Assembly (NCBI GenBank): GCA_964597575.1
Contig: CAZQXB010000001.1
Location: 64,964-128,963 of the forward strand
Reading direction: 5' to 3'
From: an uncultured Gammaproteobacteria bacterium
GTDB lineage: Bacteria > Patescibacteriota > Patescibacteriia > Magasanikbacterales > UBA922
DNA length: 64,000 nucleotides
Part shown: positions 6,801 through 53,828 of the stretch, piece by piece
How the letters are laid out: every line of letters begins with the position of its first letter
How positions within the stretch are numbered: the first letter of the stretch is position 1
The notes under the pieces: model-generated
What the model saw: the letters and a program-made list of their open reading frames with translations, nothing else
What the model was told of the DNA's origin: nothing
Databases searched by the model: none
Program-made: the position numbers and the translations under genes

Positions 6801-7371
6801 CTTGTGACGGACCATTAATGCCGTATGCCCAATGGAGCCCGGTATTAAACCACTGTGGTGAGTTCGGTGCGACACGCTGCGTGAGGAGCATGTACGCAAG
6901 CTCATCGTAAAACACTTGTGCATCTTCAGGAGTTGCAAAGTATCCATATCGCTCCCCCCAGTACCGCCAAGTTCCGACCAATCGATGCACCGTTTGTTTC
7001 ACGCTGGTTTCAGGTCCAAGCATGGGAGACCCGTCTGCGTTCTTTTTCGGTGATCCATCAGCATTAAATTGTGGCACCCCGGCTTTGCGAAAATATTTTT
7101 GTGCAACAATATCTGTCGCAACCTGTGACCATGTTTTCGGAATCTCAATTTCTTTCATTTCAAACACCACCGTACCATCCGGTTCACGAATAACTGAGGT
7201 GCGTAGATCATATTCGATCATGTCATACGGACTCACGCCTTGTTTGGTATACAAACGCTGACACTTAAGCCCATTCGGGTGATACGTAAAACGAGCCGAG
7301 GCATCGGCTCCGAGCTGAATGCTTTCAATAAAACGGGAATCAGTTGGCCCCATAGAATGAAGATAAGGCAT
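3865..7371 (-). CDS. nrdJ: adenosylcobalamin-dependent ribonucleoside-diphosphate/triphosphate reductase, class II (NrdJ), long form
   Basis: Collinear class II RNR pattern along the whole 1168-aa protein. C-terminal Cys cluster CPTCGHITVRNGACYKCLNCG typical of NrdJ. Internal Lys/Glu-rich linker. No intein motifs. Confidence 0.93.
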   Translation of the reverse strand: MPYLHSMGPTDSRFIESIQLGADASARFTYHPNGLKCQRLYTKQGVSPYDMIEYDLRTSVIREPDGTVVFEMKEIEIPKTWSQVATDIVAQKYFRKAGVPQFNADGSPKKNADGSPMLGPETSVKQTVHRLVGTWRYWGERYGYFATPEDAQVFYDELAYMLLTQRVAPNSPQWFNTGLHWAYGINGPSQGHYYVDPDSGVLTKSKDSYSHPQPHACFIQSVRDDLVGEGGIMDLWVREARLFKYGSGTGTNFSGLRGRGEALSGGGMSSGLMSFLKIGDRAAGAIKSGGTTRRAAKMVILNADHPDILEFINWKVEEEKKVAALITAGYGSDYEGEAYQTVSGQNSNNSVRVPHTFMDAIKRDASWNLTWRTDGTIARTHKAREIWDAIAYAAWRCADPGVQYDGTINDWHTCPQSGRINGSNPCSEYMFLDNTACNLASLNLAHYYNVERQEFLVDDFKHSVRLWTVVLEISVLMAQYPSKEIAQMSYEYRTLGLGYANIGSVLMTAGIPYESEEAYAFTGAVTALMTGESYRTSAEIASFLGPFPKFALNREDMLRVMRNHRRAAFNAPESEYEKITIMPVGINPEYAPAYLLAAARESWNEAVAWGEKYGYRNAQTTLLAPTGTIGLLMDCATTGVEPDFALVKFKKLAGGGYFKIVNEAVPAALRQLGYAENEVGEVMDYMKGTADITNAPFINAESLKAKGFSTEDLEKVNKALKGAFEIRFAFNVWTLGEECMKRAGFSATEYNDSNFHMLKALGFSDEEIDRANDFVCGLMTIEGAPHLKAEHYPIFDCANKCGKKGVRYIHYLGHVRMMAAAQPFLSGAISKTINMPNDVTVEDVKFAYEESWRVGLKAVALYRDGSKLSQALSTSSKKEVKKEEIKEEVKAVVEKPVAKEVEVVKQADLSQAILAASKILGQHMPDTHAIPSYSKDGSITDHRVYVHGEKRKVPAKRSGITVSAKIGNQQIWLRTGEYPDGKLAEIFVDMYKEGAAFRSMLNMFAISVSMGLQYGVPLEKYVENFTFTRFEPAGMTDHPNVKICTSIIDFVFRVLGMEYLGRTDFVQVPPKGIQKNKFENLVNLAENTAGQETLQLPKIAPAVAGKAKSEVADEATSGAVAGDVPDAMAQALSEMDGDAPACPTCGHITVRNGACYKCLNCGDSLGCS

Positions 7372-8702: not shown

Positions 8703-8971
8703 TAAGCATCCCCCTCTTCGTTTTTCTCGTCATTTTCGCGATTGTCGTGCTTGCGAGTGTTACTCTTTGGTGCATCAACGTCTACCATATTATTGCGAGT
8801 GCCTCCATGACTCCGGCCGCCTTCTTTGTATCTGCCACAGTCGCTATTCTTGGAATTCTCGTCATTGGGGGTACGTGGCTCCTCGTAAGCGATGTCGACT
8901 GGAGCACCAACCTCCCCATTTTTGATTCTAACCCCCTTACTCAGGATAGCCTTTCTTATGACCGTCCGTGA
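8699..8971 (+). CDS. small membrane protein (2 TM, 90 aa)
   Basis: ATG overlaps the ruvB stop (ATGA at 8699-8702). Two hydrophobic helices. Overlaps the next gene by 14 nt. Confidence 0.4.
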
Positions 8972-20539: not shown

Positions 20540-21094
20540 ATGAAAATTTACACAAAAACTGGAGACAAAGGTGAAACCGGGTTACTTGGTGGTATCCGCA
20601 TTTCCAAAACAAGTGACATTATTCATGCAATCGGGGAAATTGATGAACTCAATGCCTCTTTAGGCATTCTTATTACCCTCTCAAAGGAATGCGAGCATAC
20701 AGAACACACTGACCGGCTTCTTCATGTACAGCACACCCTGTTTGTTCTCGGGGCAACTTTAGCGCAAGTAAAAACGGACATTCCCTTTGCTACGCCCTTG
20801 TCAGAAAAAGAAGTATTTGCCCTCGAAGAGTGGATCGACGAAATGGATGGGGTGCTTTCCCCTCTTACTCAGTTTATTCTCCCTGGAGGAAATACCTTAG
20901 CTTCTGAGGCCTTTTACATACGTGCAGTATGTCGGAGAGCAGAGAGAGCGGTGATAAAAACCGTTTCTTCTGAAAACGAACACACTTTTAGTTCAAGTAT
21001 TATGTATCTAAACCGGTTAAGTGACACCCTCTTTACGTTGGGACGCTGGTACAATGCTAATGACCGAACACCGGAAACATATTGGGTTAAATAA
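20540..21094 (+). CDS. pduO: ATP:cob(I)alamin adenosyltransferase, PduO type
   Basis: N-terminal YTKTGDKGETGLLGG motif characteristic of the PduO/MMAB family. 184 aa. Confidence 0.85.
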   Translation: MKIYTKTGDKGETGLLGGIRISKTSDIIHAIGEIDELNASLGILITLSKECEHTEHTDRLLHVQHTLFVLGATLAQVKTDIPFATPLSEKEVFALEEWIDEMDGVLSPLTQFILPGGNTLASEAFYIRAVCRRAERAVIKTVSSENEHTFSSSIMYLNRLSDTLFTLGRWYNANDRTPETYWVK

Positions 21095-21193
21095 TTGTAC
21101 GACATATAAATACTTTTTATTGCTTATATATTCAGGCAATTATCCATTTACAGGGCAACTATCCCTTTACAACAAGTAACAAAAAAGGTAACC
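21095..21193 (+). repeat. left copy (R1) of about 100-bp direct repeat with two tandem 20-nt iterons GGCAAYTATCCMTTTACARC
   Basis: Starts immediately after the pduO stop with TTGTACGACATATAAATAC. Contains GGCAATTATCCATTTACAG GGCAACTATCCCTTTACAAC AAGTAACAAAAAAGGTAACC. Second copy is at 24001-24133. Confidence 0.6.
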
Positions 21194-21201
21194 TTATAAA
21201 C

Positions 21202-21320
21202 GACTACCCACAATTCGCGGAATAACCGAAGATTCGACTCCCTATCTCTTGTTTGCGTATAAGAATAGGTAGTCAATCGTCCACAAACAGAACCTTCGGG
21301 TTCTGCGAACGTGGGTAGTC
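21202..21320 (+). promoter_or_regulatory. structured leader whose closing stem pairs with the GTG start of the downstream gene
   Basis: GACTACCCAC (21202-21211) pairs with GTGGGTAGTC (21311-21320, the start codon region). Internal hairpins CCTAT..ATAGG and CAGAACC-UUCG-GGUUCUG (UUCG tetraloop). Confidence 0.3.
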
Positions 21321-21622
21321 CGGTTGGCTACCTTTTTTTGTTTTTATATATGTTTTCAGAGAAACCTGGAGAAAAGAAAAATGACCCATACGCTGTAATG
21401 GGAATCATACTTTCGTTTATGGGTATGGGAATAACGTATAACTTCTTTGCCTATCTTGGCCTCTTATGTGGACTTGTAGCTCTCAGGAGATTGCACGAAC
21501 GCACTGACATTTACAGAAAGGGGGCCGGATACGCCAAGGCTGCCATTACCTACGGGATTGTCTTTGGGCCAATAGTTGATATTGTTTTCTGGTACTTAAT
21601 TGATATTCGTTGGGCTCAGTAA
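21311..21622 (+). CDS. small membrane protein (103 aa; start uncertain, GTG 21311 or ATG 21350)
   Basis: Two to three hydrophobic helices (GIILSFMGMGITYNFFAYLGLLCGLVAL; ITYGIVFGPIVDIVFWYLI). No SD sequence at either candidate start. Confidence 0.5.
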   Translation: MGSPVGYLFLFLYMFSEKPGEKKNDPYAVMGIILSFMGMGITYNFFAYLGLLCGLVALRRLHERTDIYRKGAGYAKAAITYGIVFGPIVDIVFWYLIDIRWAQ

Positions 21623-21658
21623 AAAAACAAAATAGCTCTTTAAGAGCTATTTTGAAAT

Positions 21659-22081
21659 TCATTTAGGCGGAAGGGCAATTAACTGGGCAATTTTATTAAC
21701 CGGATCTACTTCTAGTTTTACATTCCATGCCTCTAACATTTTTTGTCCAATTAAAATTCCGCAATCTGGTGAATTTGTAGGTGAATTCACAACTGCAAAA
21801 GATTTTCTACCAACCAACGAAACATTTCCGGCCGTATCGATTGAGCTTATGGTGGTACCATCTGCCAAAGTCCAGGTCCCAAAACTAGCCATTAACTCAA
21901 GTCCATTTTGCTGAACACTTTTAAATGGCATCATTAAGAAACCACTAAAACCCGTATCGATTTGACCTTCCCAGATATATCCTATGTGATTGGGGTCACC
22001 ATTGGGTACCAGATTCTCCAAGAGAAAAGGAAGTAAAATTTGTGTTCCTTCAAAACGACAGTTCGCAACTATTACCCTCAT
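21659..22081 (-). CDS. retropepsin-like (clan AA) aspartic protease
   Basis: QIDTGFSG active-site DTG motif plus a C-terminal GILIGQKML flap-like motif. 140 aa. Overlaps the upstream gene by ATGA. Confidence 0.55.
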   Translation of the reverse strand: MRVIVANCRFEGTQILLPFLLENLVPNGDPNHIGYIWEGQIDTGFSGFLMMPFKSVQQNGLELMASFGTWTLADGTTISSIDTAGNVSLVGRKSFAVVNSPTNSPDCGILIGQKMLEAWNVKLEVDPVNKIAQLIALPPK

Positions 22082-22293
22082 AAATTAAAAACAAAAGATA
22101 CCGCTTTCTGGTATTCTGGTCTGGATGTAATTTCATTCAATTTTGCAGGGTTATCTACCACTTCATGTCTTTTTAAATACGGAAAAACCACCACAGTTTT
22201 TCCTCTGTTTCGATCTTTGAAATTACCTCCCAAATCATCGAGGTATTGTTGAGAATCTCTTTGAGTTTTTATTGCTTCGTCTAAAATTGTCAT
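22078..22293 (-). CDS. hypothetical small protein (71 aa), translationally coupled to the aspartic protease gene
   Basis: 4-nt ATGA overlap with 21659-22081. No motifs recognised. Confidence 0.45.
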   Translation of the reverse strand: MTILDEAIKTQRDSQQYLDDLGGNFKDRNRGKTVVVFPYLKRHEVVDNPAKLNEITSRPEYQKAVSFVFNL

Positions 22294-22398
22294 ATAATTT
22301 TAATGGCTCAGCTCTTTTCCCAATATACTCTTAAAGAATCAAAAAAGCAACATGTGTAAAGACAGCCTCCTATGATTCATTAAGTCATTTTTCACACC

Positions 22399-22785
22399 CT
22401 ACTTTAAAAGTGCCCTTTGCATATACTCCTGCCTTTCTTCAATTCTATTCATATCGCGTGAAAAATCTATCCTTAATTCTGCATTATTTTCGATAACTTC
22501 ATTTATTTTGTCGTTTACTGAATCTTGTGTTTGATAATATGAAGCTTTCATCCCTGCCATGAAGATAACAACAGCAACTATTAAAGAAATAAATAAAAAT
22601 AACCCACCAATAATAACACCTATAAGAAGGTTATTCATTTTTCCAGAAAAACCTTCCACTTCTTTCCTAATATCTTCAAATTTTTTTTGAAAGACAGCTT
22701 CTGCAACATCGCCTGTTTTGGTTGCAGTATTCAAATCAATCATCGACTGCACCTCCTCCTGAGTTAGCTTTTTTCTAGGGGCCAT
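22399..22785 (-). CDS. small single-pass membrane protein with coiled-coil regions (128 aa)
   Basis: Central TM (LLIGVIIGGLFLFISLIVAVVIFMAG) flanked by charged helical segments. Confidence 0.5.
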   Translation of the reverse strand: MAPRKKLTQEEVQSMIDLNTATKTGDVAEAVFQKKFEDIRKEVEGFSGKMNNLLIGVIIGGLFLFISLIVAVVIFMAGMKASYYQTQDSVNDKINEVIENNAELRIDFSRDMNRIEERQEYMQRALLK

Positions 22786-22789
22786 ACAC

Positions 22790-23047
22790 TTACTTTCCTT
22801 GCGAAATTACCCCCACTATTTTATAGACAGTGTCATTATCTTCTAACTGCACAACTAAATCCAAGTAACGTAAAACATGAAAATCTATTCCTTCAATTTT
22901 CTCACCCTGACAAAATCTAGTATCTTTTTCTATTACACCATTGTTTCCTATTTTTATTTTTTCTTTAGTAATTAAAACATCATTCTTCTCTTCAGAAAAA
23001 ATATCTAGGAACCTCATTTTTATTTTCGTCTCTGTCGTTTCTGGCAT
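22790..23047 (-). CDS. hypothetical small protein (85 aa)
   Basis: The ORF-track start at 23089 is a TTG lying inside the 23065-23087 palindrome. First ATG at 23047 used instead. Confidence 0.4.
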   Translation of the reverse strand: MPETTETKIKMRFLDIFSEEKNDVLITKEKIKIGNNGVIEKDTRFCQGEKIEGIDFHVLRYLDLVVQLEDNDTVYKIVGVISQGK

Positions 23048-23064
23048 AGAAAAAACTAAATTTT

Positions 23065-23087
23065 GAGTGTATACTCTGTATACACTC
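23065..23087. repeat. palindrome GAGTGTATAC-TCT-GTATACACTC (variant of the dispersed GTATACAC palindrome family)
   Basis: 10-nt arms in perfect inverted orientation, between the transposase stop and the 22790 gene. Confidence 0.5.
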
Positions 23088-23151
23088 AAGTATACTCAAA
23101 CTATGAAAAAAATCAACCCGCAATCCACCTTTCACTCCCTCCTCCACAAAG

Positions 23152-23994
23152 CTATCTCACCACCCGCGAAAGCAAAGCCGGGAAAATTGGGATCCCCGAC
23201 CGCAGGCAGTTATACCGGAAAACAGCCTCGTTCACGTACCACTGGAGCCACTTCCCGGAAATCCAATGGTGGCACCGGTAAAGCTTCTTAAGCTGAGACC
23301 AAAATCCCTCAATACCATTCGTAGATACGTTCCCCCGAACGTATTCTCTTTTACTGTGGCATACTGAAAAATGGTTATATCGCCTACCTAAGTCATCATA
23401 TGAATGGCTTTCATCGGTCATAACATCGGACGCCCAATCAATAACCGAAAAGATATACTTCGATAAGGTAAGTTTCTGAATGTCCCGCACCACCACAGCA
23501 AACACCTTTCCCTCTCGTTTCAGAATCCCGAACACAGGGATTTTGTTTTTTCTCCAGCCACACCCACCTGCTCTGCGGGTTTTCCCTCCAATAAACGTTT
23601 CATCCGCCTCAAACACCCCTTCTGATTTCTCCATATCCTGCTCCATAAGCTCACGAATCTTGTGACCCATACGCCAGGCGGTCTTATAAGTTACCCCTAA
23701 CACCCTCTGCAACTCCTTTGCCGGGACACCCCGGCGCGTTTGTGAGAATAGGTATATACTAAGAAACCACAGTTTTAGGGATGTAGAGGACTTATTGAAA
23801 ATCGTGTCGGAGAGTGGATCTATCTGGTAGCCACAAGCACAGGCATAGGTCTTACGACCCTCTACCCTATAGAACTTGTTCTTGAGACACTTTGGACAGA
23901 GGTGACCTTCCCCATATTTATACTTAAAAACGTACTCTAGGCAGGCATCATCGTCCGGAAATTGTTTATTAAATTGAGAGATAGAATACTTCAT
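23152..23994 (-). CDS. IS1595-family (ISXO2-like) transposase
   Basis: N-terminal transposase zinc ribbon (HLCPKC...CACGYQ) and the DDE_Tnp_IS1595 domain. C-terminal ...WYVNEAVFRYN motif typical of the family. Confidence 0.9.
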   Translation of the reverse strand: MKYSISQFNKQFPDDDACLEYVFKYKYGEGHLCPKCLKNKFYRVEGRKTYACACGYQIDPLSDTIFNKSSTSLKLWFLSIYLFSQTRRGVPAKELQRVLGVTYKTAWRMGHKIRELMEQDMEKSEGVFEADETFIGGKTRRAGGCGWRKNKIPVFGILKREGKVFAVVVRDIQKLTLSKYIFSVIDWASDVMTDESHSYDDLGRRYNHFSVCHSKREYVRGNVSTNGIEGFWSQLKKLYRCHHWISGKWLQWYVNEAVFRYNCLRSGIPIFPALLSRVVR

Positions 23995-24000
23995 AAATTA

Positions 24001-24133
24001 TTGTACGACGTATATATTGCCTTATTTTATACAATAATTTATACTTGTTGTAAAGGGATACAGGCGATTTACAGGGCAACTATCCCTTTACAACGGCAAT
24101 TATCCCTTTACAACAAGTAGCAAAAAGTAACTC
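24001..24133 (+). repeat. right copy (R2) of about 100-bp direct repeat; two direct iterons plus one inverted copy
   Basis: TTGTACGACGTATATAT at 24001. Inverted unit CTTGTTGTAAAGGGATA at 24044-24060. Direct units GGCAACTATCCCTTTACAAC (24075-24094) and GGCAATTATCCCTTTACAAC (24095-24114). Then AAGTAGCAAAAAGTAACTC. Confidence 0.6.
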
Positions 24134-24389
24134 TAATTTTACCTGTGTTTCACATGAAACGAGCCACCAAAAATGACTGCTCCAAAAGAATGACTAAGTA
24201 ACCTGGCTCTTCCTTTTTTGTTTGGTCTTTTTCATAATAGAATGTTTCACAAGAAACATTCTATTTATTTTGAGTAGCAAATAAGATATTTCCGTGCAAG
24301 TGACCGAGCTGAACCTGTGGATGAATTGGTGCATAAGAAACAATTTTTGTGGATTACCTGTTTACATGGTATGACCAAAATGTCTCCAG

Positions 24390-24412
24390 TTGTATACACT
24401 AGTGTATACAAA
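24390..24412. repeat. 24-bp perfect palindrome TTGTATACACTAGTGTATACAA (copy A)
   Basis: Exact inverted repeat in intergenic DNA. Same motif is at 25002-25025 and 33430-33452. Confidence 0.6.
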
Positions 24413-24804
24413 TGAGTTATTCACAGGCTAAAAAAGTTATTCACTCACATGTGGACAAATCTGTGCATAAAATACACCGACAATAAGTACTACAAAGTAG
24501 GCTGTTTCATGTGAAACACTCCATGAGGGGAATCTCGGAAAAAGACTCATACGCAATCTGCTATCTCTTTTAGAGATTAGGGTGAGAGTATGTACTTAGT
24601 GGAAAACCAAAGTCAGTGTTCAATTCTGCTTTACCCAAAAATCATTATCTACACTGCCGCCCCAAGGATAAACTGTATAGGCGTAGTGTCCATCTTTAGA
24701 AAGCCGAAAAAATGCAAAGTACGCTACAAATCTAAAAACCAAAAAAACCTCACACCGGGGCACGGGCAGGTAGTGTTCCAAGCAAAAGAAAACGATGTAC
24801 AGTG

Positions 24805-24876
24805 TGGCCTCACCACGAATCGAACGTGGATTTAGACGTTAGGAGTGTCTCGTTCTATCCATTGAACTATGGGGCC
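24805..24876 (-). tRNA. tRNA-Arg (anticodon CCT), with C5-A68 and A31-C39 mismatches
   Basis: Minus-strand cloverleaf GGCCCCA...TGAGGCCA. Anticodon loop CTCCTAA. T-arm CCACGTTCGATTCGTGG. Two stem mismatches, so possibly a degenerating copy. Confidence 0.55.
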
Positions 24877-25001
24877 TTATTTTACATAAATAATATATGT
24901 CGTACATTATTTATGTCACTTTCTTTGCCGATAAATGAGTAGGCAGTGAAACACTTGGGTGTTTTCTTGCCAAAAATCAGTATTCACTATTTCTGCTTTC
25001 A

Positions 25002-25098: not shown

Positions 25099-26199
25099 AT
25101 GACACCTCTCCTTATCGCAATTGCCGGACTTCTTATTGTGGGTTTAGTTGTTATTTGCCTCATTCTTCTTAAAAAAATGCAATCCCTCGAGGCACTCCAG
25201 GCAAACCCACAAAACCAGGAACAGCTCTTCGTTATGCTTCAGAGCCAAATTCAGGATTTGGGAAGAAATGTGGATCAGCGGCTCACTGACACTCACAAAA
25301 CCATGAATCAAACGACGGAGCACCTTCACAGAACCATTCAGTCGCAGTTTGGCCAGAGTGCAAAAATAATCACTGAGGTAACGGAAAAATTGGCAAAGCT
25401 TGATGAAACAAACCGCCAGGTAGTCTCCTTTACTGATCAGCTCCAGAACCTTGAAAAGGTCCTAACAAACTCAAAAAATCGAGGTTCACTTGGTGAAGCT
25501 GGGCTTGAATTGATTCTCACCAATATCCTTCCTCCAGGCAGCTTTACCCTTCAGCACAAATTTCAGGATGGGGACACCGTGGACGCCGCCATTCATATTA
25601 AAGACCAAATTCTTCCTGTAGACGCGAAGTTTTCCCTCGACAACTACCGCCGTATTCTCGATGAGAACGATCCTACCCGTCGTGAAGCACTCGAAAAGGA
25701 GTTTAAGGCGGACCTTAAGAAGAGGATTGATGAAACTTCGAAGTACATTAAACCAAAAGAGGGGACATTTGATTTTGCCTTCATGTTTATCCCCGCTGAA
25801 GGAATCTACTATGACCTGCTTATCAACGAAATTGGGGCGGTCAAAATGAATACCCGAAGCCTCATTGACTACGCATTTAAGGAAAAGAAAGTCATCATCG
25901 TTTCACCGACCACCTTTACCGCCTATCTCCAGACCGTTCTCCAGGGGCTGCGCGCACTTCAGGTAGAAGAGTCTGCTAAGGAGATCCAGAAACGAGTAGA
26001 GCAGTTAGGGGCTCACTTGGCAGCCTACGAGACGTATATGCAGAAACTGGGTAATAACCTTGGCACAACGGTAAATATGTATAACCAAGCCTACAAGGAG
26101 CTTGCGAAGATCGATAAGGACGTCGTAAAAATTACCGAAGGGGAGAGGGTTATCGAGGCTTTGATCGTAGAAAAACCGCAAAGCATCCTTGATGCGTAG
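25099..26199 (+). CDS. rmuC: DNA recombination protein RmuC
   Basis: N-terminal TM, long coiled coil, C-terminal RmuC nuclease-like domain (DFAFMFIPAEGIYYDLL...VIIVSPTTFTAYL). Confidence 0.85.
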   Translation: MTPLLIAIAGLLIVGLVVICLILLKKMQSLEALQANPQNQEQLFVMLQSQIQDLGRNVDQRLTDTHKTMNQTTEHLHRTIQSQFGQSAKIITEVTEKLAKLDETNRQVVSFTDQLQNLEKVLTNSKNRGSLGEAGLELILTNILPPGSFTLQHKFQDGDTVDAAIHIKDQILPVDAKFSLDNYRRILDENDPTRREALEKEFKADLKKRIDETSKYIKPKEGTFDFAFMFIPAEGIYYDLLINEIGAVKMNTRSLIDYAFKEKKVIIVSPTTFTAYLQTVLQGLRALQVEESAKEIQKRVEQLGAHLAAYETYMQKLGNNLGTTVNMYNQAYKELAKIDKDVVKITEGERVIEALIVEKPQSILDA

Positions 26200-32888: not shown

Positions 32889-33429
32889 ACGGGGTCAGAG
32901 TTTGAATAAACCACCTTAATGGTATACCAAAAATAAAAATTTTCGTCAAAAAAACGAAAAGCGGCGTGCCGAAGCCCATAGATAATAATATATGGCTGGC
33001 ACGCCGCAAACATCCTCGTGGCCATGCCTTCAGCACTCTTTTGCCATTGCTATAGCAAGACAGTGCCGAAGACTTGAGTCCAAGAAGGACGGTAGTACCC
33101 CTACCACCGCGAATGTGGTTGATGCTCCCGACAACACTCTGCCGAAGCAGGGGATGTTGCATAGGTGGAAGCGCACCGGGCTAAGTCCGTTTTTTGTTTG
33201 TTTATTTGAGTTTCATACGCCTGATGAGCTAAGAAGCTTCGAATCAAGCAAAGAATGGACTTGGCCGAACCGCAGTAGATGGGGATAGAGTTGCCTTACA
33301 CAACGAGGTGTAGGGCAGTTCTAAAGTGACTTTTTAATGATCACAAATACAGTATAGCACAAAAAACGAGTTTTGTCAAGTTTCTGGCTTTGTACAGGTA
33401 AGAATAGGCATTTTTGGCTTAAATTAGTA

Positions 33430-33452
33430 TTTGTATACACTAGTGTATACAA
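33430..33452. repeat. palindrome TTTGTATACACTAGTGTATACAA (copy C) plus degenerate half-sites at 33608-33653
   Basis: Exact copy of the 24390 motif. AGTGTATACAAAT half-site at 33640-33653 and TTATACACAT x2 at 33610-33630. Confidence 0.55.
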
Positions 33453-33737
33453 TAGAGTTTCAAAAAGATATCCCCAAAGAGAACAAATGTTCCACAGTAT
33501 TGTCCCCAGAAAATTATGAATCGCAATGCGAAGAGGCTTTTGCTCTTTCTCTTTTTCATAGAACTTTAAAATGCTCGTGCCTTCGATTCTATCCCCATAT
33601 TCACAAAGTTATACACATACTTATACACATGTATAGAATAGTGTATACAAATAATTTTTTTTAAACATCCAGAGGATTGGACCGGTGTATTTATTAGGGG
33701 GGGTTGGTGTAGGTATGCAGCCGGGGCATACCCCTCC

Positions 33738-33766: not shown

Positions 33767-33836
33767 CATTCCCATCTATCCACTGTCGCCTGCTCAAAAA
33801 ACAAAATTGCGCAGTGGAAAGAGGGGGAAAGTCTAA

Positions 33837-34055
33837 ATGCAGAATCCGAAGGGCCCACCCAAGAGCATGGCACGGTACGCTGGTCCGGTCTCCCCGGCAA
33901 TGCGGCGTCGCCGCGAGAACCGCGACGATCGGCGGCAGTCTCGGGGGCAGCTCGCGCCCCTGATCGGACGTCCGAGCTTCGTGGCCGAAGAGGCCTTCGG
34001 CCACTACGACCGGAACTCGTACAAAAACGGGGTCATCCGGGAGGACAGCAACTAG
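33837..34055 (+). CDS. possible small Arg-rich basic protein (72 aa), or non-coding RNA
   Basis: ORF preceded by AGAGGGGGAAAG about 9 nt upstream. Very Arg/Pro/Gly-rich. Coding status uncertain. Confidence 0.3.
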   Translation: MQNPKGPPKSMARYAGPVSPAMRRRRENRDDRRQSRGQLAPLIGRPSFVAEEAFGHYDRNSYKNGVIREDSN

Positions 34056-34199
34056 GGGTCATCTGGCCCTCGTAAGGCCGGTGGGCGGTGCGCATACGTA
34101 CGTTTAGGGCGACGAACGTGTGTGCACTGCCTGCCGGACCTTTTTTAATTTCTTAAACTTTTGTATACTGTTTCTATTCATAGCTTTAAGGAGGGAGTT

Positions 34200-46665: not shown

Positions 46666-47781
46666 TTATTGCCTGATAGGCATGACGATATACACATAAC
46701 CATCCTTTCCTTCTTCTTTGAAGATACACGGCGCCTCAGGGCTATTAACACCAATGAAGATGTTGTTATCCATGTGTGCAACCCCATCGAGCACATACCG
46801 GTAATTTAAAAGAATGGAATTATCTGCGCCCTCAAGATCTGCTTCAACACTTGCGGTATGTTCTCCGGCGGCAGTGCTCACCGAAGACAATGTTACATTT
46901 TTTTCTGGCACATGAAACTCAAAAGAAACACCATTTACTCCCTGAGCACTGAATAAACTTGCCGTCTTTATACTTTTTACAAACTCATCTGCAGAAAGCG
47001 AAACCCTCGTCGCAAACTCCTTGGGGATAATTTGTGCATAGTCGGGATAACTTCCTTGAATGAGGCGAGAAGTCAGTTCTACCTCGCCAACCTGCATAGT
47101 AATTTGGTTTTGGGTGACCCACCAACGTGCGCGGGCACCACCTTCTTTTACCCCACCAAGAAGGCGAATCATTTCATACACCGTTCTTGAAGGAACAACA
47201 CAGGTTACCTGCCCGTCGCCTGAAAGAAGCGGAACTTGTTTTTCTGCTAACCGATACGAATCAGTAGCCGCAACGGTGAGCCCACTAAAGCGTTCCGTTC
47301 CAATATGAACACACACCCCAGAAAGTTCGGGGCGGATTTCATTTTTCGATACTGCCACCACCACTCGTTCAAGAGCTTGTTTGAGCGGTGCTGATTCAAA
47401 AACAAATTCATGATCGCGCTCTACCTCTGGCATACCCGGAAACTCCTCCGGCGGAGATCCTTTCATCTTGGTATTATTTCGACCGCACTTTACACGTAAC
47501 TCATCACCTTCTAATGAAAATTGAATTTGGTCATCCGGTAGAAGGTGAATATACTCGGAAAGCATTTTGGCTGGGACCGTAAACGAACCGGTTGTTTCTA
47601 CTTTCGCACGGATCGTGGTTCGGATTGCCACCTCAAGGTTTGTTGTGAGAAGTGATACACCCGATTCGGTCGCAACCAAAAGAACATGCGATAAAATTGG
47701 TAAATGTGTTTGTTTTCCCGCTAACCCACCTACTTGAGTAAGTGCTTGAGCGATGTTGTCTTTAGTACATGTGAATTTCAT
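46666..47781 (-). CDS. dnaN: DNA polymerase III beta sliding clamp
   Basis: 371 aa, three-domain beta-clamp collinearity. Conserved position downstream of dnaA. Confidence 0.92.
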   Translation of the reverse strand: MKFTCTKDNIAQALTQVGGLAGKQTHLPILSHVLLVATESGVSLLTTNLEVAIRTTIRAKVETTGSFTVPAKMLSEYIHLLPDDQIQFSLEGDELRVKCGRNNTKMKGSPPEEFPGMPEVERDHEFVFESAPLKQALERVVVAVSKNEIRPELSGVCVHIGTERFSGLTVAATDSYRLAEKQVPLLSGDGQVTCVVPSRTVYEMIRLLGGVKEGGARARWWVTQNQITMQVGEVELTSRLIQGSYPDYAQIIPKEFATRVSLSADEFVKSIKTASLFSAQGVNGVSFEFHVPEKNVTLSSVSTAAGEHTASVEADLEGADNSILLNYRYVLDGVAHMDNNIFIGVNSPEAPCIFKEEGKDGYVYIVMPIRQ

Positions 47782-48023
47782 AGGCTCAATTGGTATATAT
47801 ACATATATATTTATATCGTAGTAATAGTAGTAAGGGGGACAGCGGGGATAACCGGTATTCTATTCTACGCGTAGCGCTTATTTCTTCGACAGGGGGTGTG
47901 GAGAAAACAGTGGAAACTTTTGCGTGCTGTGGGTAGTTTTTTGGGCGGTGGGGATATGTTTTGCTTGTCCCCATCGGTATCCACAATCATTTTGGGTACT
48001 TATCCGCATCTTTACCCCCGAGG
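47782..48023. promoter_or_regulatory. dnaA-dnaN intergenic oriC-like region: AT-rich unwinding element plus DnaA boxes
   Basis: TATATATACATATATATTTATAT at 47793-47816. DnaA-box-like 9-mers at 47844-47852 (reverse complement GTTATCCCC), 47977-47985 (GTATCCACA) and 48000-48008 (TTATCCGCA). Confidence 0.45.
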
Positions 48024-49505
48024 TTATACACCGTGGGAGTACAGACGCTGCTTAATGGAATCAATCTCGCCTTTTAACTTTGGATCATTGTCGACATCAC
48101 GGGAAATTTTGGTGTGCGCATGCATGGCCGTGGTATGGTCTCGCCCCCCAAGCTCTTCACCAATAGCCGGGTACGACATTTTGAGCTCGTTTCGAAGGAG
48201 AAACATGATAATTTGTCGTGGATGAGCGAGGCGCTTCTCGCGGCTTTTCCCTGTAATATCGTCGAGGGTAATATCGTAAAACTTGCCAACCTCGTGAATA
48301 ATATCTTTCGGAGTAACCGATTTTTTAAAGGGCTGCGCTTCGAGGGTAACGAGGACGGCTTTAATGCTCTCTGGGGTTGGGGGTGTATTTTTGAGTTGGT
48401 GGAAAGCAATAATTTTATTTAACACTCCTTCGAGTTCACGAATATTGTTTTGGATACTGACCGCAATCATGTTGGCGGTTTTTTCGTCGACAGGGAAACG
48501 TTTTTCCTGACATTTTGCCTGTACAATCGCAATTCTGGTTTCAAGGTCAGGGGCTGCAATGTCAACAATCATGCCCCATTCAAGCCGGCTGCGAAGACGA
48601 TCTTCAAGGCCGGGGATTGCTTTCGGCGGCCGGTCTGAAGTGAGTACGATTTGCTTCCCTTGCTGATGAAGTTCATTAAAGGTATGAAAAAATTCTTCTT
48701 GGGTTTGTTCTTTTCCCCCAATAAATTGGATATCGTCGATAAGAAGAAGGTCAACGTTGCGGTAACGATCCTTAAATTCTTTGGCCCGACCTTCCTTTAC
48801 TGAAGAAATAAAGTCGTTGGTAAATTTCTCTGAGTTAACGTATAAAATTTTGGTATTAGCATTTCTTTGAAGCATGGCGTTTCCAATACCTTGGATCAAA
48901 TGGGTTTTACCCAAACCTACGCCACCATAAATAAAGAGCGGATTGTAGGCTTCCCCTGGGCGATTCGCTACCGCCTGGGCGGCTGCATGGGCCAGTTCAT
49001 TGCCTTTTCCAACAATGAAGGTTTCAAAGGTGTATTTTGGATTCAAACCAAAAGGGTTTTGTGCTGGTTCGCGACGGTAGACTTCCTGTTGTTGAATTTG
49101 TTGAGGTTGTGCTGTTGGGTATTGAGGCATTGGTTGAACCGGAGACGGCTGTGTTTGGGGTCCGGAAGAAGGAGGTGGGGTAGGAGCAGGTTGAAGCTGA
49201 CACTCCTGTTCTTGGATGTTCTTGATATTCTCGACTGTATAGTCCAGTTTTTTAACAGGCTTTCCAGTTACCCGTTCGATCGCTTTAATAATGTTTGTGT
49301 GATATTTTTTTTCAAACCATCCCTTCGCAAATGTGCTTGGCACGCACACCACCACACGACCGTTGTCGTATGTTGATATGCCGGTGCCTTGGAACCATGC
49401 ATTGAAATTGGCTTTGGATATAGTGAGTTCGATTTCGCCGAGGACGGCCTGCCAAATTTCATGATTGGTCATAGAGAAACGTATTCTAGGGGCATTGTAC
49501 CACAA
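48024..49505 (-). CDS. dnaA: chromosomal replication initiator DnaA
   Basis: AAA+ Walker A GGVGLGKTHL, domain IV DNA-binding signature and full collinearity. Gln/Pro-rich linker in domain II. Confidence 0.95.
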   Translation of the reverse strand: MWYNAPRIRFSMTNHEIWQAVLGEIELTISKANFNAWFQGTGISTYDNGRVVVCVPSTFAKGWFEKKYHTNIIKAIERVTGKPVKKLDYTVENIKNIQEQECQLQPAPTPPPSSGPQTQPSPVQPMPQYPTAQPQQIQQQEVYRREPAQNPFGLNPKYTFETFIVGKGNELAHAAAQAVANRPGEAYNPLFIYGGVGLGKTHLIQGIGNAMLQRNANTKILYVNSEKFTNDFISSVKEGRAKEFKDRYRNVDLLLIDDIQFIGGKEQTQEEFFHTFNELHQQGKQIVLTSDRPPKAIPGLEDRLRSRLEWGMIVDIAAPDLETRIAIVQAKCQEKRFPVDEKTANMIAVSIQNNIRELEGVLNKIIAFHQLKNTPPTPESIKAVLVTLEAQPFKKSVTPKDIIHEVGKFYDITLDDITGKSREKRLAHPRQIIMFLLRNELKMSYPAIGEELGGRDHTTAMHAHTKISRDVDNDPKLKGEIDSIKQRLYSHGV

Positions 49506-49574
49506 GGGAGAGAAAGCAAAAATGGCCTTAGCTTAGCAAAGAAGATGGTTGTGGGTTGATAATCTGTACACATT

Positions 49575-49603
49575 GGGGATAACCTGTGGATAGTGGGGAT
49601 AAC
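49575..49603. promoter_or_regulatory. cluster of three DnaA boxes upstream of dnaA
   Basis: GGGGATAAC, TGTGGATAG and GGGGATAAC in tandem (reverse complements GTTATCCCC, CTATCCACA, GTTATCCCC). Confidence 0.45.
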
Positions 49604-49751
49604 TTTCCGTCTTCTTTTCAGAGTTGAGCCATAAAAGATTGTGCACATGCATGTGTACAATGAAAGATCCATTGGTTCGGATTGACAAAATAGTAGTTCC
49701 GCTTGCCTCGTGTGTTTTGGAGCCCTTCTTTTTATAAAGAAAATGGCTGTG

Positions 49752-49780
49752 TTGACAAAATAAAAAAAATTCGCTATACT
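49752..49780 (+). promoter_or_regulatory. rpsT promoter TTGACA-N17-TATACT
   Basis: Perfect hexamers 38 nt upstream of the rpsT ATG. Confidence 0.5.
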
Positions 49781-49818
49781 CATCCTATTATATTTTCGTC
49801 CATTTTCCTTAGAATTTT

Positions 49819-50100
49819 ATGCCAATCAAGCAAAATGCTAAAAAAGCCTTGCGCCAGGCAAAAAAGCGCGCGATTCAGAACAAAGTGGTAAAGAATGCGT
49901 ACAAGGAAGCCATGAAGCAAGCTCAGAAAGCAATTGACGGCGGTAAAGACGTGCTCGAAGCCGCTCGTTTGGCACAGCAAAAGCTTGCGAAGGCGGCAAA
50001 GAAGGGTGTGATTAAATCAAACACTGCTTCTCGCAAACTTTCTCGCCTTATGAAAAAGGTGAACCAAGCTGCGAAACCTGCTGCTTCAAAAAAGAAATAA
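49819..50100 (+). CDS. rpsT: 30S ribosomal protein S20
   Basis: 93-aa basic helical protein. N-terminal AKKALRQAKKRAIQNKVVKN pattern typical of S20. Confidence 0.85.
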   Translation: MPIKQNAKKALRQAKKRAIQNKVVKNAYKEAMKQAQKAIDGGKDVLEAARLAQQKLAKAAKKGVIKSNTASRKLSRLMKKVNQAAKPAASKKK

Positions 50101-50114
50101 TTATCCCCAAATAC

Positions 50115-50150
50115 AAAAAATATCCCCAAGACCTGGGGATATTTTTGTTT
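50115..50150 (+). terminator. terminator after rpsT
   Basis: TATCCCCA-agac-CTGGGGATA followed by TTTTTGTTTT. Confidence 0.5.
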
Positions 50151-50164
50151 TCCCGTCCAGACTG

Positions 50165-51133
50165 CTAATTCCCAAAACGAACAATAATGTACTCAAGGGT
50201 ACTGGCCATGTCCGTTTTTCCTGTTTTTACCCCGATATCAGCCTCAAGGAGCAGGCGATGGAGTTCTTGAAATTTTTCAGGCGGAGTTTGTTTAATTAAC
50301 CCCAATGATTTTTTGACCACGAACGGATGGGCCCCAATCTTGCGAGCAAGAGAATCGGAAGAAGCCCCTGGATCTCGTTTTAAGGCATCGGAGAGTTCAA
50401 GTAAAATTTTGGTCTGTCGGATAAGCATGGCAAGCACATAGCCGTCCTCGCCCCCATGGCTCCGCTCCATGGCAAGGTGCTCAAAAGCTTGCTTGGTTTT
50501 TTGGGCCACAATGCTATCAACGAGTGCAAAAATAACATCCTCGGTTCCGCCATCGAGAAAAAGAAGGACATCAGCTTCTGTAATAGCAGTATTTTGTCCG
50601 CTATAGGCGGTAAGTACTTCAAAAAGATTTTTTGCCTGCCAAGAATCTACCCCAGCAATACGCACGAGTTCAGGAAGTGCGTGAGCATCAACAGTCTTTC
50701 CTCGTTCTTTAAAATATTCCTTGACCCAGGTGCCAGCTTCAGAAGAAGTAAGTTTGGCAAATTCTTGAGCATAGGGTGTCGCTTTAAGTGTGTCCCACAG
50801 CGCCTTTGCTTCTTTGTGTTTTTCAGGAGCAGCTTCTTCAAAAAAAATAGTAACATTGGTTGGTGGAAGTTTATTCGCCGTGATTTTTTCCTGAATGGCT
50901 AATTGCAGCTCTTTGTTTTTTGTTTTCATGAGCCGCTCAACGACAATCATTCTTTTTTCTGCGAGAAAAGGGGAGGCGCTTATTTCTTCAAGAATATTTA
51001 CCTTGCTCGAGGCGGCATCAAGCACGACAACATTAAGCCCTTGAGGGTCACGTTCTGCCTTGAAGCGCTCAATCAGTTTTTTTAAACGCTCACGGCTTCG
51101 GAATGTATCTTCCCCGTAGAGAAAAATAACCAT
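50165..51133 (-). CDS. holA: DNA polymerase III delta subunit
   Basis: 322 aa. N-terminal delta-subunit AAA+-like lid pattern (VIFLYGEDTF...). Co-oriented and adjacent to polA. Confidence 0.75.
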   Translation of the reverse strand: MVIFLYGEDTFRSRERLKKLIERFKAERDPQGLNVVVLDAASSKVNILEEISASPFLAEKRMIVVERLMKTKNKELQLAIQEKITANKLPPTNVTIFFEEAAPEKHKEAKALWDTLKATPYAQEFAKLTSSEAGTWVKEYFKERGKTVDAHALPELVRIAGVDSWQAKNLFEVLTAYSGQNTAITEADVLLFLDGGTEDVIFALVDSIVAQKTKQAFEHLAMERSHGGEDGYVLAMLIRQTKILLELSDALKRDPGASSDSLARKIGAHPFVVKKSLGLIKQTPPEKFQELHRLLLEADIGVKTGKTDMASTLEYIIVRFGN

Positions 51134-51134
51134 A

Positions 51135-53828
51135 TTATTTTAACTCGCCCCAACGATCACCAATCGCTACATGAACCTCAACAGGAACTTTCAATTTTAC
51201 CACCTCAACCATTTTTTGTTTCGCGAGCTCGGCCACTTCTTCTGCAATACCTTCTTTGCATTCGAGCACCAATTCGTCGTGAACTTGGAGTGTAATGCGC
51301 GCATCTTCTAAAGAGTACCGTTTCAGGAGTTCATCATGAAGTGAGATCATCGCAAGCTTAATAATATCGGCATTTGTTCCCTGAATGGGCATGTTGACCG
51401 CCATGCGTTCGCCCGCACTTCGGAGTTGGTGGTTGTCGGATGCAAGTTCAGGAATATACCGACGTCGACCATACAGCGTTTCAACATACCCTGTTTCTTT
51501 GGCAAACGCGATGGTGTTTTCAATATACTTTTTTACGCCCGCGTATTCTTTGAAATACGCCTCAATAAATGCTTTTGCTTGCCACTGAGGAATCTGTGTT
51601 CGCCAGGCAAGCCCGAACGAGCCCATACCATAGAGAATACCAAAGTTAACGGCCTTTGCAGCGTAGCGCATTTCTTTCGTTACTTCAGATTCTTTGACGC
51701 CGTGAATGGCGGCTGCCGCAGAGGTGTGAATGTCTTTGCCTTCCTTAAAAATCTCCATCATGCGTTTGTCTTCGGCGAGCGAGGCGACAATACGAAGTTC
51801 GATTTGGGAGTAGTCGGCAGAAATAAGTTTGTACCCCTTCGCCGCAATAAACGTATTTCGTACCTGTGAGCCAAGCTCGGTTCGAATCGGAATGTTTTGC
51901 AAATTGGGGTCAACGCTCGACAGGCGGCCGGTTGCAGCCACGGCCTGGTTAAAGTGCGTATGAATTCTCCCGGTGCTCGGATTAACGAGAGTGGGTAAGA
52001 CATCAATATAGGTATTTTGAAGTTTGGAAAGTTCGCGATGTTCTTCGATGAGAGGAATAATGGCATGCTCTTCACGAAGCTTTTCTAATTCTGACGCGGC
52101 CGTGGAATATCCAGTTTTGCCTTTTTTAATTCCGTCAGTTGGAAGGGCTAACGTATCAAACAAAATATCGCGAAGCTGCGTGCTCGAGGCCACATTGAAT
52201 TCAGTTCCTGCTTCTTTCCAGATTTGTTTGGTGAGTCGGTCAAGGCTCGCTGCTACCGTTTCAGATAATTCACCGAGCACCTTCAGGTCAACTTCTACCC
52301 CAACAAGTTCCATGGCCGAAAGAACCGGAATAAGTTTCATCTCCATGTTTTTGAACAACCCCGCGTCAGTCATTTTTTGGAGTGCGGTATCAAAAATAGA
52401 AAAGAGAGGAAAGAATACGGAAATCTGTTCCGCGGTTTCTTCGACCGTTGGGCGAAAGAGTGAGGCCTGAGCATTTTTTTCTGGAAGTGTGAAGTGGAGT
52501 TCGCGTTCTACTATGCTTTCCAGATCGTGGGCCCGCGTGCTTGAGTTCACCACATACGACGCAATCATGAGATCAAACAGCGGAGCCGTGATTGTAAGAT
52601 TTTTATGGAGCAATGCACGGTAGGTTTCTTTTAAATTATGGCCCACAATATGCTCTGCGCTGTTTATTGTTTTCAGAAATACTTTTTGGTGTGTTTCTAA
52701 ATCTTTCCAAGAAAAAATGAGTGTTTTTTCTGGAGTTCCTAAAATAATGTGAGTGAGGGAGCCGGTTAAAATATCACCTGTGGTCACCTCTTCTTTCATG
52801 GCAAGAATGGGCGCGTTCTCTAAAGAAAGAAGCGTTTCTTTTATTTGTTCCGAAGAAATAATTTCGATAGGGGTCTTTTTCTCTGTGAAAGGTTTTTTCG
52901 TTTTTGGTGCAGGAGCCTCGCCACGAAGTCGTTTCAAAAGTGAGAAAAATTCAAACTTTTGAAAAAGGGGTTCAAGCACCTCAAGGTTAAAAGGTTTAAT
53001 GGCCGTCTTTGAAAGAGAAAAATCTAAATCCGGAACATCGCGTTTAATGGTTGCGAGGGCTCGGCTCATTTTAGCGGACTCGTACCCACCCTCAAGCTTC
53101 GCAATAACACCTTTGGGAAACGTTTCTCGAATAACACTCTTCTCTTTTTTGAGATCCCTGTACATGTCGTCCACGCCACCAATTTTCGTAATGAGTTCCG
53201 TTGCTGTTTTTTCACCAATGCCTTTAATGCCCGGAATATTATCTGAGGTATCTCCGCGGAGAGATTTATAATCGATAATTCGTTCGGGTCCAAAACCGTA
53301 TTTTTCTTTTACTTTCTCCGCGTCGAAAATAACCACATCTGAAAGACCTTTCCGAAGTTCGTAGACTCGTGTGTTTTCGTCGATGAGCTGTAAAATATCC
53401 ATATCACCTGTCACGATGAGGGTTTGGATACCATTTTTAAGTATATTTTTGTCGGCAGAAATCGTGCCGATCACATCGTCGGCTTCATATCCTTCTTTTT
53501 CAAAAATCTCGATTCCCATGGCTCGGACCACGTCGTGAATAAGCGGTATTTGGTTATATAGAGCGTCGTCGGCTTTGACGCGTTTGGCTTTGTATTCCGT
53601 AAAAATTTCATCGCGAAATGTACCGCCTGCCACATCAAATGAAACGGCAATGTGGCTCGGTGCAATTTCTTGAATCACCCGAAGGAGGGTGGAAACAAAG
53701 CCATAGACCGCGTTTACGACCATGCCATCTTTGGTCGTCAGTGGGGGAACGGCATGGTATGCACGGTGAATAATGGCGTTGCCATCGATAAGAACTAAGG
53801 TCTTTTGTGGAGGGGTATTTTTAGCCAT
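51135..53828 (-). CDS. polA: DNA polymerase I (5'-3' exonuclease + 3'-5' exo-like + polymerase domains)
   Basis: N-terminal 5'-nuclease motifs, family A polymerase motifs A (DYSQIELR), B (RRxAKxxNFGxxYG) and C (HDE). Confidence 0.95.
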   Translation of the reverse strand: MAKNTPPQKTLVLIDGNAIIHRAYHAVPPLTTKDGMVVNAVYGFVSTLLRVIQEIAPSHIAVSFDVAGGTFRDEIFTEYKAKRVKADDALYNQIPLIHDVVRAMGIEIFEKEGYEADDVIGTISADKNILKNGIQTLIVTGDMDILQLIDENTRVYELRKGLSDVVIFDAEKVKEKYGFGPERIIDYKSLRGDTSDNIPGIKGIGEKTATELITKIGGVDDMYRDLKKEKSVIRETFPKGVIAKLEGGYESAKMSRALATIKRDVPDLDFSLSKTAIKPFNLEVLEPLFQKFEFFSLLKRLRGEAPAPKTKKPFTEKKTPIEIISSEQIKETLLSLENAPILAMKEEVTTGDILTGSLTHIILGTPEKTLIFSWKDLETHQKVFLKTINSAEHIVGHNLKETYRALLHKNLTITAPLFDLMIASYVVNSSTRAHDLESIVERELHFTLPEKNAQASLFRPTVEETAEQISVFFPLFSIFDTALQKMTDAGLFKNMEMKLIPVLSAMELVGVEVDLKVLGELSETVAASLDRLTKQIWKEAGTEFNVASSTQLRDILFDTLALPTDGIKKGKTGYSTAASELEKLREEHAIIPLIEEHRELSKLQNTYIDVLPTLVNPSTGRIHTHFNQAVAATGRLSSVDPNLQNIPIRTELGSQVRNTFIAAKGYKLISADYSQIELRIVASLAEDKRMMEIFKEGKDIHTSAAAAIHGVKESEVTKEMRYAAKAVNFGILYGMGSFGLAWRTQIPQWQAKAFIEAYFKEYAGVKKYIENTIAFAKETGYVETLYGRRRYIPELASDNHQLRSAGERMAVNMPIQGTNADIIKLAMISLHDELLKRYSLEDARITLQVHDELVLECKEGIAEEVAELAKQKMVEVVKLKVPVEVHVAIGDRWGELK

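Follow-up and report, generated by a model that had tools for sequence, protein, structure and literature searches.

The 64,000-nucleotide (nt) stretch of contig CAZQXB010000001.1 analysed here (positions 64,964 to 128,963 of the forward strand; hereafter the window) bears, at 21154-24066 on the minus strand, what we regard with high confidence as a single IS1595-family insertion sequence (IS) with passenger genes, of the "transporter IS" type, sited in a Candidatus Magasanikbacteria genome; this confidence covers the best explanation as a whole. The element is 2,913 bp long, with its transposase gene on the minus strand, and it holds between its terminal inverted repeats (TIRs) that gene, four small genes co-oriented with it, one opposed membrane-protein gene and a hairpin of approximately 150 nt. 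An IS1595 element with passenger genes is an ordinary, already known class of object, and its recognition settles the annotation of the region. Beyond the known class lie the subterminal hairpin, a motif shared with the host region and a fixed insertion offset, which make a new, site-specific variant probable.

Ends, boundaries and contents of the element

A set of 20-nt iterons, reported for this region in the original prediction, was the starting point. Sequence comparison identifies the iteron as the TIR of a large and widespread clade of the IS1595 family. In many unrelated loci its 19-nt core (TATCCCTTTACAACAAGTA) precedes a transposase homologue by approximately 40-80 nt, and a conserved TATCCCTTGACAnCAAGTA stands before the transposase gene in L007, L026, L027, L030 and L020/L022, which include the closest as well as more distant homologues. 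Loci L020 and L022 encode one and the same transposase, yet their left-hand contexts differ and the similarity between them ceases immediately outside the core, so the sequence marks an end of a mobile unit. For a survey of the core, 80 further transposase loci were retrieved from viral contigs. The core was present on the transposase strand 49 times (with up to 3 mismatches) and had an inverted partner in 27 loci. Perfect 8/8 direct repeats flank 15 of these 27 end pairs; the ends of these 15 are 1.4-3.4 kb apart, and all 15 duplications start exactly 6 nt outside the core, with tips that mostly read GGYRNN. The ends could be defined by comparing multiple IS1595 copies, as the original prediction had recommended. 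The tip GGnnAYTAT presumably resembles that of the ISNwi1 group, and the element is given no named ISfinder subgroup. Extra DNA between the ends is the rule in the core-bearing clade. Two single-copy examples of homologues on plasmids (up to 42% identity) showed no clear ends.

Application of the 6-nt tip rule, calibrated on the 15 other elements with perfect 8/8 duplications, gives the limits of the element in the window. Each TIR is 25 nt long, a 6-nt tip plus the 19-nt core, and the two are identical at 21/25 positions. The inverted iteron that had been noticed inside the second repeat copy is real, as 24042-24060 is complementary to 21160-21178 at 19/19 positions. The octamer ATTTACAG abuts both tips at the same offset as in the 15 other elements. 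Transposase domains, 25-nt TIRs and 8-bp duplication agree with the first of the two alternatives offered in the original prediction, an IS1595 element with passenger genes.

The cassette had previously been bounded at 21095 and 24133 by two direct repeats of about 100 bp. The repeats and iterons exist and are not random: the 18-nt unit GGCAAYTATCCMTTTACA occurs at 21135, 21154, 24075 and 24095, always on the plus strand, where shuffles predict 0.17 matches and 0/100 reach 4, and no further copy lies within the 64-kb window even with 3 mismatches. It is also correct that copy 1 abuts the pduO stop and that copy 2 begins 7 nt from the transposase ATG (23994). The similarity of the two copies, which runs from TAAAT(A/T)ATTGTACGAC through ACAACAAGTARCAAAAA, was confirmed by alignment. 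A single 100-bp unit was not: unrelated sequence and an insertion lie in between, and the repeats are interrupted, imperfect composites of one ATTGTACGAC copy each plus TIR copies. These TIR copies comprise the real right-hand end and solo ends from an earlier insertion at the same 8-bp target. The cassette bounds shift inward to 21154 and 24066. The sequence GGCGATTTACAG at 24063-24074, formerly taken for a degenerate iteron, turns out to be the left-hand TIR tip (IRL) plus the target duplication, and TTGTACGAC, formerly one part of the repeat, is host flank in copy 1 and lies inside the element in copy 2. Additionally, TGTACGACRTATA occurs at 21096(+), at 24002(+) and, inverted, at 24894-24906.

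Further units lie on both sides of the element. Those at 24075-24119, which repeat the distal TIR (IRR), are the stub of an older copy that had inserted at the same 8-bp target and has since been deleted. The order of new end, ATTTACAG and old end is what would be expected if a second copy inserted into the very 8-mer used by the first. Similarity to the IS interior right of approximately 24133 is not above shuffles, and no longer remnant of the older copy was found. On the other side, the unit at 21135-21153 is the insertion target itself, with the duplication as its final 8 nt. The end-like character of this target may come from cycles in which insertion is followed by a deletion reaching from the 8-mer to homologous positions 12-19 in the new end, each of which would leave one extra 19-20-nt unit as a footprint. 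As copies of the element's own end, the units are presumably transposase-binding sites. A tandem-dimer junction or a decayed IRL in copy 1 was also considered and rejected, the offsets (34 nt vs 57 nt) not fitting. A composite transposon was likewise rejected, since there is only one transposase gene and the right-hand units are a stub of ~60 nt and not a second IS copy.

The transposase matches PF12762 (DDE_Tnp_IS1595; E = 9.9e-31, 107 bits against a cut-off of 27), PF12760 (the N-terminal Zn-ribbon, a domain of every IS1595 group but IS1016; E = 1e-8, 35.2 bits against 25.4) and NF033547 (E = 2e-51, 174.7 bits against 75). A 9-sequence alignment of the window protein and its homologues showed that D131, D194 (in TDE), N226 and K236 are invariant, as are the four Zn-ribbon cysteines; the third catalytic residue is N (DDNK-type), the triad being assigned by position and not by structure. 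An 8-bp duplication and a transposase with Zn-ribbon and DDE domains are published features of the IS1595 family (PMC8101967; PMC12561309). Members with passenger genes are documented under the name "transporter IS" by Siguier, Gagnevin and Chandler (2009), as cited in PMC3129680 and PMC8101967. The earlier description of an IS1595 transposase plus five small genes is upheld, with both family domains present and all five genes between the TIRs. All genes between the repeats were also called on an independent assembly of the same strain (L002), in which the cassette is 100% identical to that of the window.

Concerning the passengers, the label of retropepsin-like protease for the 140-aa protein is weakly supported and may be called reasonable, not firm. 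The protein contains IDTGFSG and matches TIGR03698 under the cut-off (E = 7.9e-7, 29 bits), and several of its 31 representative relatives match PF13975/PF13650, three of them above the gathering score. Domain and family searches gave no match for the 71-, 128- and 85-aa proteins. The genes between the repeats had been described as lying in AT-rich DNA, which holds for 22100-23150, where the guanine-plus-cytosine (GC) content is 31-35% against ~45% around it, and does not hold for the transposase gene (44-50% GC). All features are collected in Table 1.

Table 1. Coordinates of the element, its ends and contents, and the features next to it (positions in the window)
Feature	Position	Strand	Remarks
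Cob_adeno_trans (pduO-type) gene, stop codon	21092-21094		Abuts repeat copy 1
Host-flank copy of ATTGTACGAC	21094-21103	+	42 nt from target duplication; in repeat copy 1 (21088-21108)
TIR-like unit in host flank, GGCAATTATCCATTTACAG	21135-21153	+	Last 8 nt are the left ATTTACAG
Target duplication, left copy, ATTTACAG	21146-21153	+	Last 8 nt of unit 21135-21153
IS1595-family insertion sequence with passenger genes (high confidence)	21154-24066	-	TIRs 21/25, identical 8-bp ATTTACAG on both sides
IRR, TIR distal to the transposase, GGCAACTATCCCTTTACAACAAGTA	21154-21178	+	End/core comparison
Long subterminal hairpin ending in T-run	21187-21341	+	Kept in L007 and L026
Passenger: small membrane protein, DUF4190-like	21350-21622	+	PF13828, E = 4.5e-8, just under cut-off
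Bidirectional terminator-like hairpin between convergent passenger genes	21628-21654		
Passenger: retropepsin-like (clan AA, DTGF) aspartic protease candidate, 140 aa	21659-22081	-	TIGR03698
Passenger: 71 aa	22078-22293	-	4-nt overlap with protease gene; no family match
Passenger: single-pass membrane protein, 128 aa	22399-22785	-	No family match
Passenger: 85 aa	22790-23047	-	No family match
GTATAC palindrome with two 7/9 DnaA-box-like halves	23063-23089		63-89 nt past transposase stop; a perfect DnaA box stands here in the sister elements
IS1595-family transposase, 280 aa	23152-23994	-	PF12762, PF12760, NF033547
Internal copy of ATTGTACGAC	24000-24009	+	5 nt from transposase ATG, 32 nt from TIR; in repeat copy 2 (23994-24014)
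IRL, transposase-side TIR, reading inward CGCCTGTATCCCTTTACAACAAGTA	24042-24066	-	End/core comparison
Target duplication, right copy, ATTTACAG	24067-24074	+	Directly outside IRL tip
Two solo IRR-type units (24075-24094, 24095-24119) plus ~15 nt of IS-interior-like sequence	24075-24133	+	Stub of earlier copy
Densest DnaA-box-like cluster in the window	24316-24653		Flanked by palindromes at 24145, 24243, 24391, 24503
tRNA-Arg(CCT)	24804-24876	-	The region's conserved neighbour in relatives
Third motif copy, inverted	24899-24906	-	Between tRNA-Arg and RmuC, as in relatives

Sister elements, host motif and insertion distance

Two sister elements were identified, both in other metagenomic assemblies. 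The first, in L007 (Magasanikbacteria by source name), is 2,233 bp long with the target duplication GTTTAAAC and carries DUF3467 and a tRNA-Thr as cargo, while the second, in L026, is 2,382 bp long with the duplication TTGCTGTT and carries an ImmA/IrrE-type Peptidase_M78 and a 100-aa protein. In all three elements GTCGTACAAT, the reverse complement of ATTGTACGAC with a -10-like TACAAT in it, stands beyond the duplication at the distal end in the same orientation, at 42 nt in the window, 43 nt in L007 and 43 nt in L026. The spacers of 42-43 nt are unrelated in sequence, and the three duplications differ. With the same offset and orientation and with all 8-mers different, targeted insertion is the most likely explanation. 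Insertion would most likely be directed to a fixed distance from the motif ATTGTACGAC, and the transposase, or a host protein bound at the motif, would act as the ruler. Under such a rule the element could be maintained at a single position near the origin where it does no harm.

The motif itself belongs to the host. In L004 and L005, which come from related species and have no transposase here, ATTGTACGAC occurs as an inverted pair on either side of the same non-coding region of tRNA-Arg and RmuC (at 2129-2138 and 3104-3113 in L004; at 8864-8873 and 9962-9971 in L005), and these are IS-free versions of the site, in other species. Including the window pair (24002/24899), the inverted pair brackets the non-coding region upstream of RmuC in three Magasanikbacteria, its copies 0.9-1.1 kb apart. 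The bracketed region holds 16-bp palindromes, TGTTCCACATGGAACA in the relatives and TGTTTCACATGAAACA in the window, as well as a perfect DnaA box in L004. The right-hand copy is located ~30-190 nt upstream of RmuC in all three genomes, and the left-hand copy points to tRNA-Ala(GGC) in L004 and L007. In the window, the host copy abuts the pduO stop because the tRNA cluster has moved elsewhere in the genome. The motif overlaps promoter-like sequence at the edges of the host region and is otherwise rare, with 4 CGTACAWT in 64 kb.

Apart from the offset, the three elements have internal features in common. The hairpin of the window element has a fold energy of -60.5 kcal/mol (z = -6.3), and homologous hairpins lie just inside the distal end (IRR) in both L007 and L026. 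Taken together, the three sequences give a consensus structure of 49 pairs with compensatory changes at 10, and the T-run is kept on the strand that reads inward from the end; the G-U pairs do not decide which strand is transcribed. The hairpin would most likely serve as a terminator for transcription that enters via the distal end. It had no match in Rfam 15 in the window at the gathering score or at E <= 5, nor did its homologues in L007 and L026. A second common feature is (G/T)TCGTACAAT, which all three elements carry 24-32 nt in from the transposase-side end, a few nt before the start codon as called. Neither this internal motif nor a comparable hairpin is present in 13 other family members with verified duplications. 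Past the transposase stop, a perfect DnaA box (TTATCCACA) was found at 59 nt in L007 (3941-3949) and at 67 nt in L026 (1115-1123). RNA-guided targeting was considered and rejected, the longest matches of the hairpin (either strand) to the reconstructed empty sites being no better than those of shuffles.

Further members of this subgroup were also sought. A metagenome scan for hairpin-bearing elements yielded only L017, a near-identical copy of the L007 end, and scans of viral contigs (with a hairpin arm and with end plus motif) gave only matches without a transposase. A second protein search with a context check added no new member; one candidate, L121, has the TIR and no motif, and its contig ends too early. 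The L017 sequence, from a marine metagenome contig, matches, at 99.5% identity over positions 1-510, the part of L007 that takes in hairpin, distal end, motif and tRNA-Ala, and both sides differ. Beside the hairpin, inside the element, it has five tandem 27-nt repeats in place of a single copy. Its identity stops in the last 7 nt of the tRNA-Ala, where an AAA_5/CbbQ_C ATPase gene follows. Either a further element that integrated at the tRNA or an assembly chimera could account for this.

The transposases of the window and L007 are 60% identical, against 60% for RmuC and 64% for YchF, and this equal divergence of transposase and host proteins suggests that the element lineage probably co-diverged with its hosts. 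Provided that the element is an IS, the balance tips slightly towards persistence in the lineage with re-insertion at a site set by its distance from the motif, as far as the sequences of the three sampled elements can tell. A fuller account, which we offer tentatively and hold to be possible and not probable, is that the subgroup represents a homing IS, in which the transposase or a host factor bound to ATTGTACGAC would place insertions exactly 42-43 bp from the motif, at the edge of an origin-proximal DnaA-box region. Repeated re-insertion and co-divergence with Magasanikbacteria hosts would follow, and a site-bound lifestyle of this kind would include the hairpin as well as the DnaA box, or the palindrome, that comes after the transposase gene.

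Competing explanations and known systems

Several points weigh against the explanation preferred here, an IS1595 element with targeted insertion. The fixed-distance rule rests on three elements, possibly all at an orthologous host locus, and vertical descent alone would also account for the equal divergence of transposase and host genes. Records of the exact transposase come from a single place (3 contigs, same context), exact look-ups of L34 and of the transposase give the same arrangement only, and the exact PduO protein, looked up for an empty site, is not on record. The comparison with an empty site that had been proposed gave IS-free versions only in other species (L004 and L005), and none was found within the species itself. 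A simple ruler model leaves unexplained the TIR-like unit at 21135, which falls within the 42-nt spacer, and the binding of the transposase to the units or the motif is something that we infer. The 8-bp duplication of the window element forms part of a longer direct repeat of 28 nt, made up of the duplication and an end copy, and is not independent evidence there. Finally, the transposase-side tips of the window, L007 and L026 elements (CG/CA) are without the GG of most family members.

Part of the same evidence would suit an old, immobile and possibly domesticated IS1595 relic, which goes back to one ancestral insertion with vertical descent and owes its constant distance to shared ancestry. 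The single genomic place on record and the atypical tips are in keeping with it, as are the transposase identity of 60% next to 60-64% for host proteins and the same neighbourhood in the window and L007, with tRNA-Arg and RmuC on one side and the motif on the other. However, each element has its own perfect 8/8 duplication, the 8-mers (ATTTACAG, GTTTAAAC and TTGCTGTT) are wholly different and the spacers cannot be aligned; at 60% protein identity, neutral 8-mer pairs should not stay identical in three lineages. The succession of new end, duplication and old end in the window bears the mark of a further insertion into a target already used, and the catalytic residues are intact. We consider such a relic unlikely, although it is the best of the alternatives to a mobile IS1595 element with targeted insertion.

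Much less credit is due to a circular element integrated by recombination at ATTGTACGAC, with the motif copies as attachment (att) sites, attL and attR. Two direct TAAATWATTGTACGACRTATA copies, 19/21 identical, do bracket the genes, the motif occupies the same place in the host DNA of relatives that lack the IS, and the sister elements also have one motif copy per side. Nevertheless, no cassette open reading frame (ORF) contains a tyrosine or serine recombinase domain, and one motif copy lies inside the TIR-bounded unit, the other outside it and past the target duplication. The boundary rule of TIR and 8 bp was in addition verified in 15 other elements without the motif. The second alternative of the original prediction, att or iteron sites of a larger integrated element, was abandoned, the units being the family-wide TIR and neither an integrase nor a Rep protein being present.

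Slightly weaker again, and very improbable, is a locally duplicated regulatory module, a promoter with an operator array for a host transcription factor and no mobility. The overlap of the motif with promoter-like hexamers and the distance of 19-20 nt between units, a spacing common for operators, are consistent with it. So is the scan of species-representative genomes for the tandem unit, which found one other locus only, in Chthoniobacterales (L001), with no transposase among its ORFs; this match is probably a chance tandem repeat, unrelated to the element. Iterons confined to the present site had been named as the mark of such a duplication. Dozens of unrelated metagenomic loci nevertheless have the core next to IS1595-type transposases, together with inverted partners and target duplications, which favours mobility, and the core occurs nowhere else in the 64-kb window. 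The idea that iterons and large hairpin form a plasmid- or phage-type replication origin of an integrated replicon deserves next to no credence: direct repeats do adjoin an AT-rich region and a long inverted repeat, and the L007-related contig has five tandem repeats beside its hairpin, yet no Rep or initiator domain is found in the cassette ORFs, the units are identical to the family TIR and the hairpin is inside the IS boundaries in three elements.

The IS1595-family element can be compared with other mobile elements. With the IS1595 "transporter IS" it shares the Zn-ribbon and DDE_Tnp_IS1595 transposase, the TIRs, the 8-bp duplication and genes between the ends that are not for transposition. 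It differs in that its subgroup has a conserved 150-nt subterminal hairpin and a promoter-like motif common to element and target region, appears to insert at a fixed distance from the motif, and is present once per genome at one locus instead of being scattered in multiple copies. The set distance and orientation from a conserved host sequence, the reuse of the site and the absence of gene disruption recall Tn7 in its TnsD-directed mode. In contrast to Tn7, the window element is without TnsABCD-like proteins and has a single DDE transposase, the sequence recognised would be a 10-nt promoter-like motif and not a gene end, and its targeting is deduced from three cases. Moreover, target immunity of Tn7 would prevent a second insertion at the same site, whereas a second copy did insert at the same site in the window. 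Finally, IS30 and IS21 target their own inverted repeats and form tandem (IS)2 structures, and the end of a new copy that abuts the end of a resident one likewise gives stacked end sequences. Unlike in these families, the abutting ends in the window are separated by the duplicated 8-mer, and the sister elements inserted beside DNA unlike an end; the IS family is also a different one.

Other clade members, surrounding region and significance

Other members of the core-bearing clade show further arrangements. L052 (3959-8212) has a single transposase-side end and, after it, four perfect copies of the distal-type end, at 5395, 6306, 7397 and 8194. These IRR copies, 0.8-1.1 kb apart, represent a cassette array in which each cassette is closed by the same 25-nt end, so that stacked ends recur in the family. 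In L020-L025, a 49%-identical transposase (P0138) is always found beside the same Eco57I-type restriction-modification gene, with a left flank that varies by contig. Some clade members carry tRNA genes as cargo, namely a 92-nt tRNA-Thr(AGT) in L007 (4577-4668) and a tRNA-Glu plus tRNA-Ser in L027 (1875-2117). As for the Chthoniobacterales metagenome-assembled genome, L001 has a tandem TATCCATTTACA with a 20-nt period at 7051-7262, overlapping the start of a folC-like gene; a 150-nt hairpin follows (z = -5.0) without a match in Rfam, and no transposase is nearby.

To the right of the cassette, the window contains a non-coding stretch, palindromes, tRNA-Arg(CCT), RmuC and rpmH-rnpA-yidD. The non-coding stretch, 1 kb long, has 8 DnaA-box-like sequences in 700 nt against a background of 0.8. 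Such sequences are located in three non-coding regions (24134-24800, 33400-33660 and 49570-49660). The dnaA-rpsT spacer (49574-49652) is the second-densest region, and 33597-33629 holds two perfect TTATACACA boxes. The palindrome TGTATACACTAGTGTATACA occurs at 24391, 25004, 33432 and 33630, and the cumulative GC skew has its minimum at ~32-34 kb. A replication origin probably lies within the window, with these three regions as candidates. Another non-coding region, 33815-34140 (and likewise 32950-33190), is GC-rich and strongly folded and ends in terminator-like hairpins. The former contains GGAAAGUC, which resembles the conserved RNase P RNA core. An Rfam search relaxed to E <= 1 returned no match; the region could encode a divergent housekeeping RNA. 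Synteny also differs from that of the relatives. In the latter, RmuC is directly followed by rpsT, holA and polA, with dnaN-dnaA ~10 kb off, while in the window (25099-26199 vs 46666-53828) rpmH-rnpA-yidD comes next after RmuC, and the blocks rpsT-holA-polA and dnaA-dnaN are reached 21-28 kb further on. This altered neighbourhood of RmuC points to a rearrangement beside the element.

If the targeting is real, the element would represent a one-gene DDE insertion sequence that homes to a safe site much as Tn7 does, and this in Patescibacteria, whose small genomes make random insertion costly. It would also provide a case for how a DDE transposase measures distance from a recognition sequence, and it would point to a regulatory or origin-like region that is conserved in these uncultured bacteria but lacks annotation.

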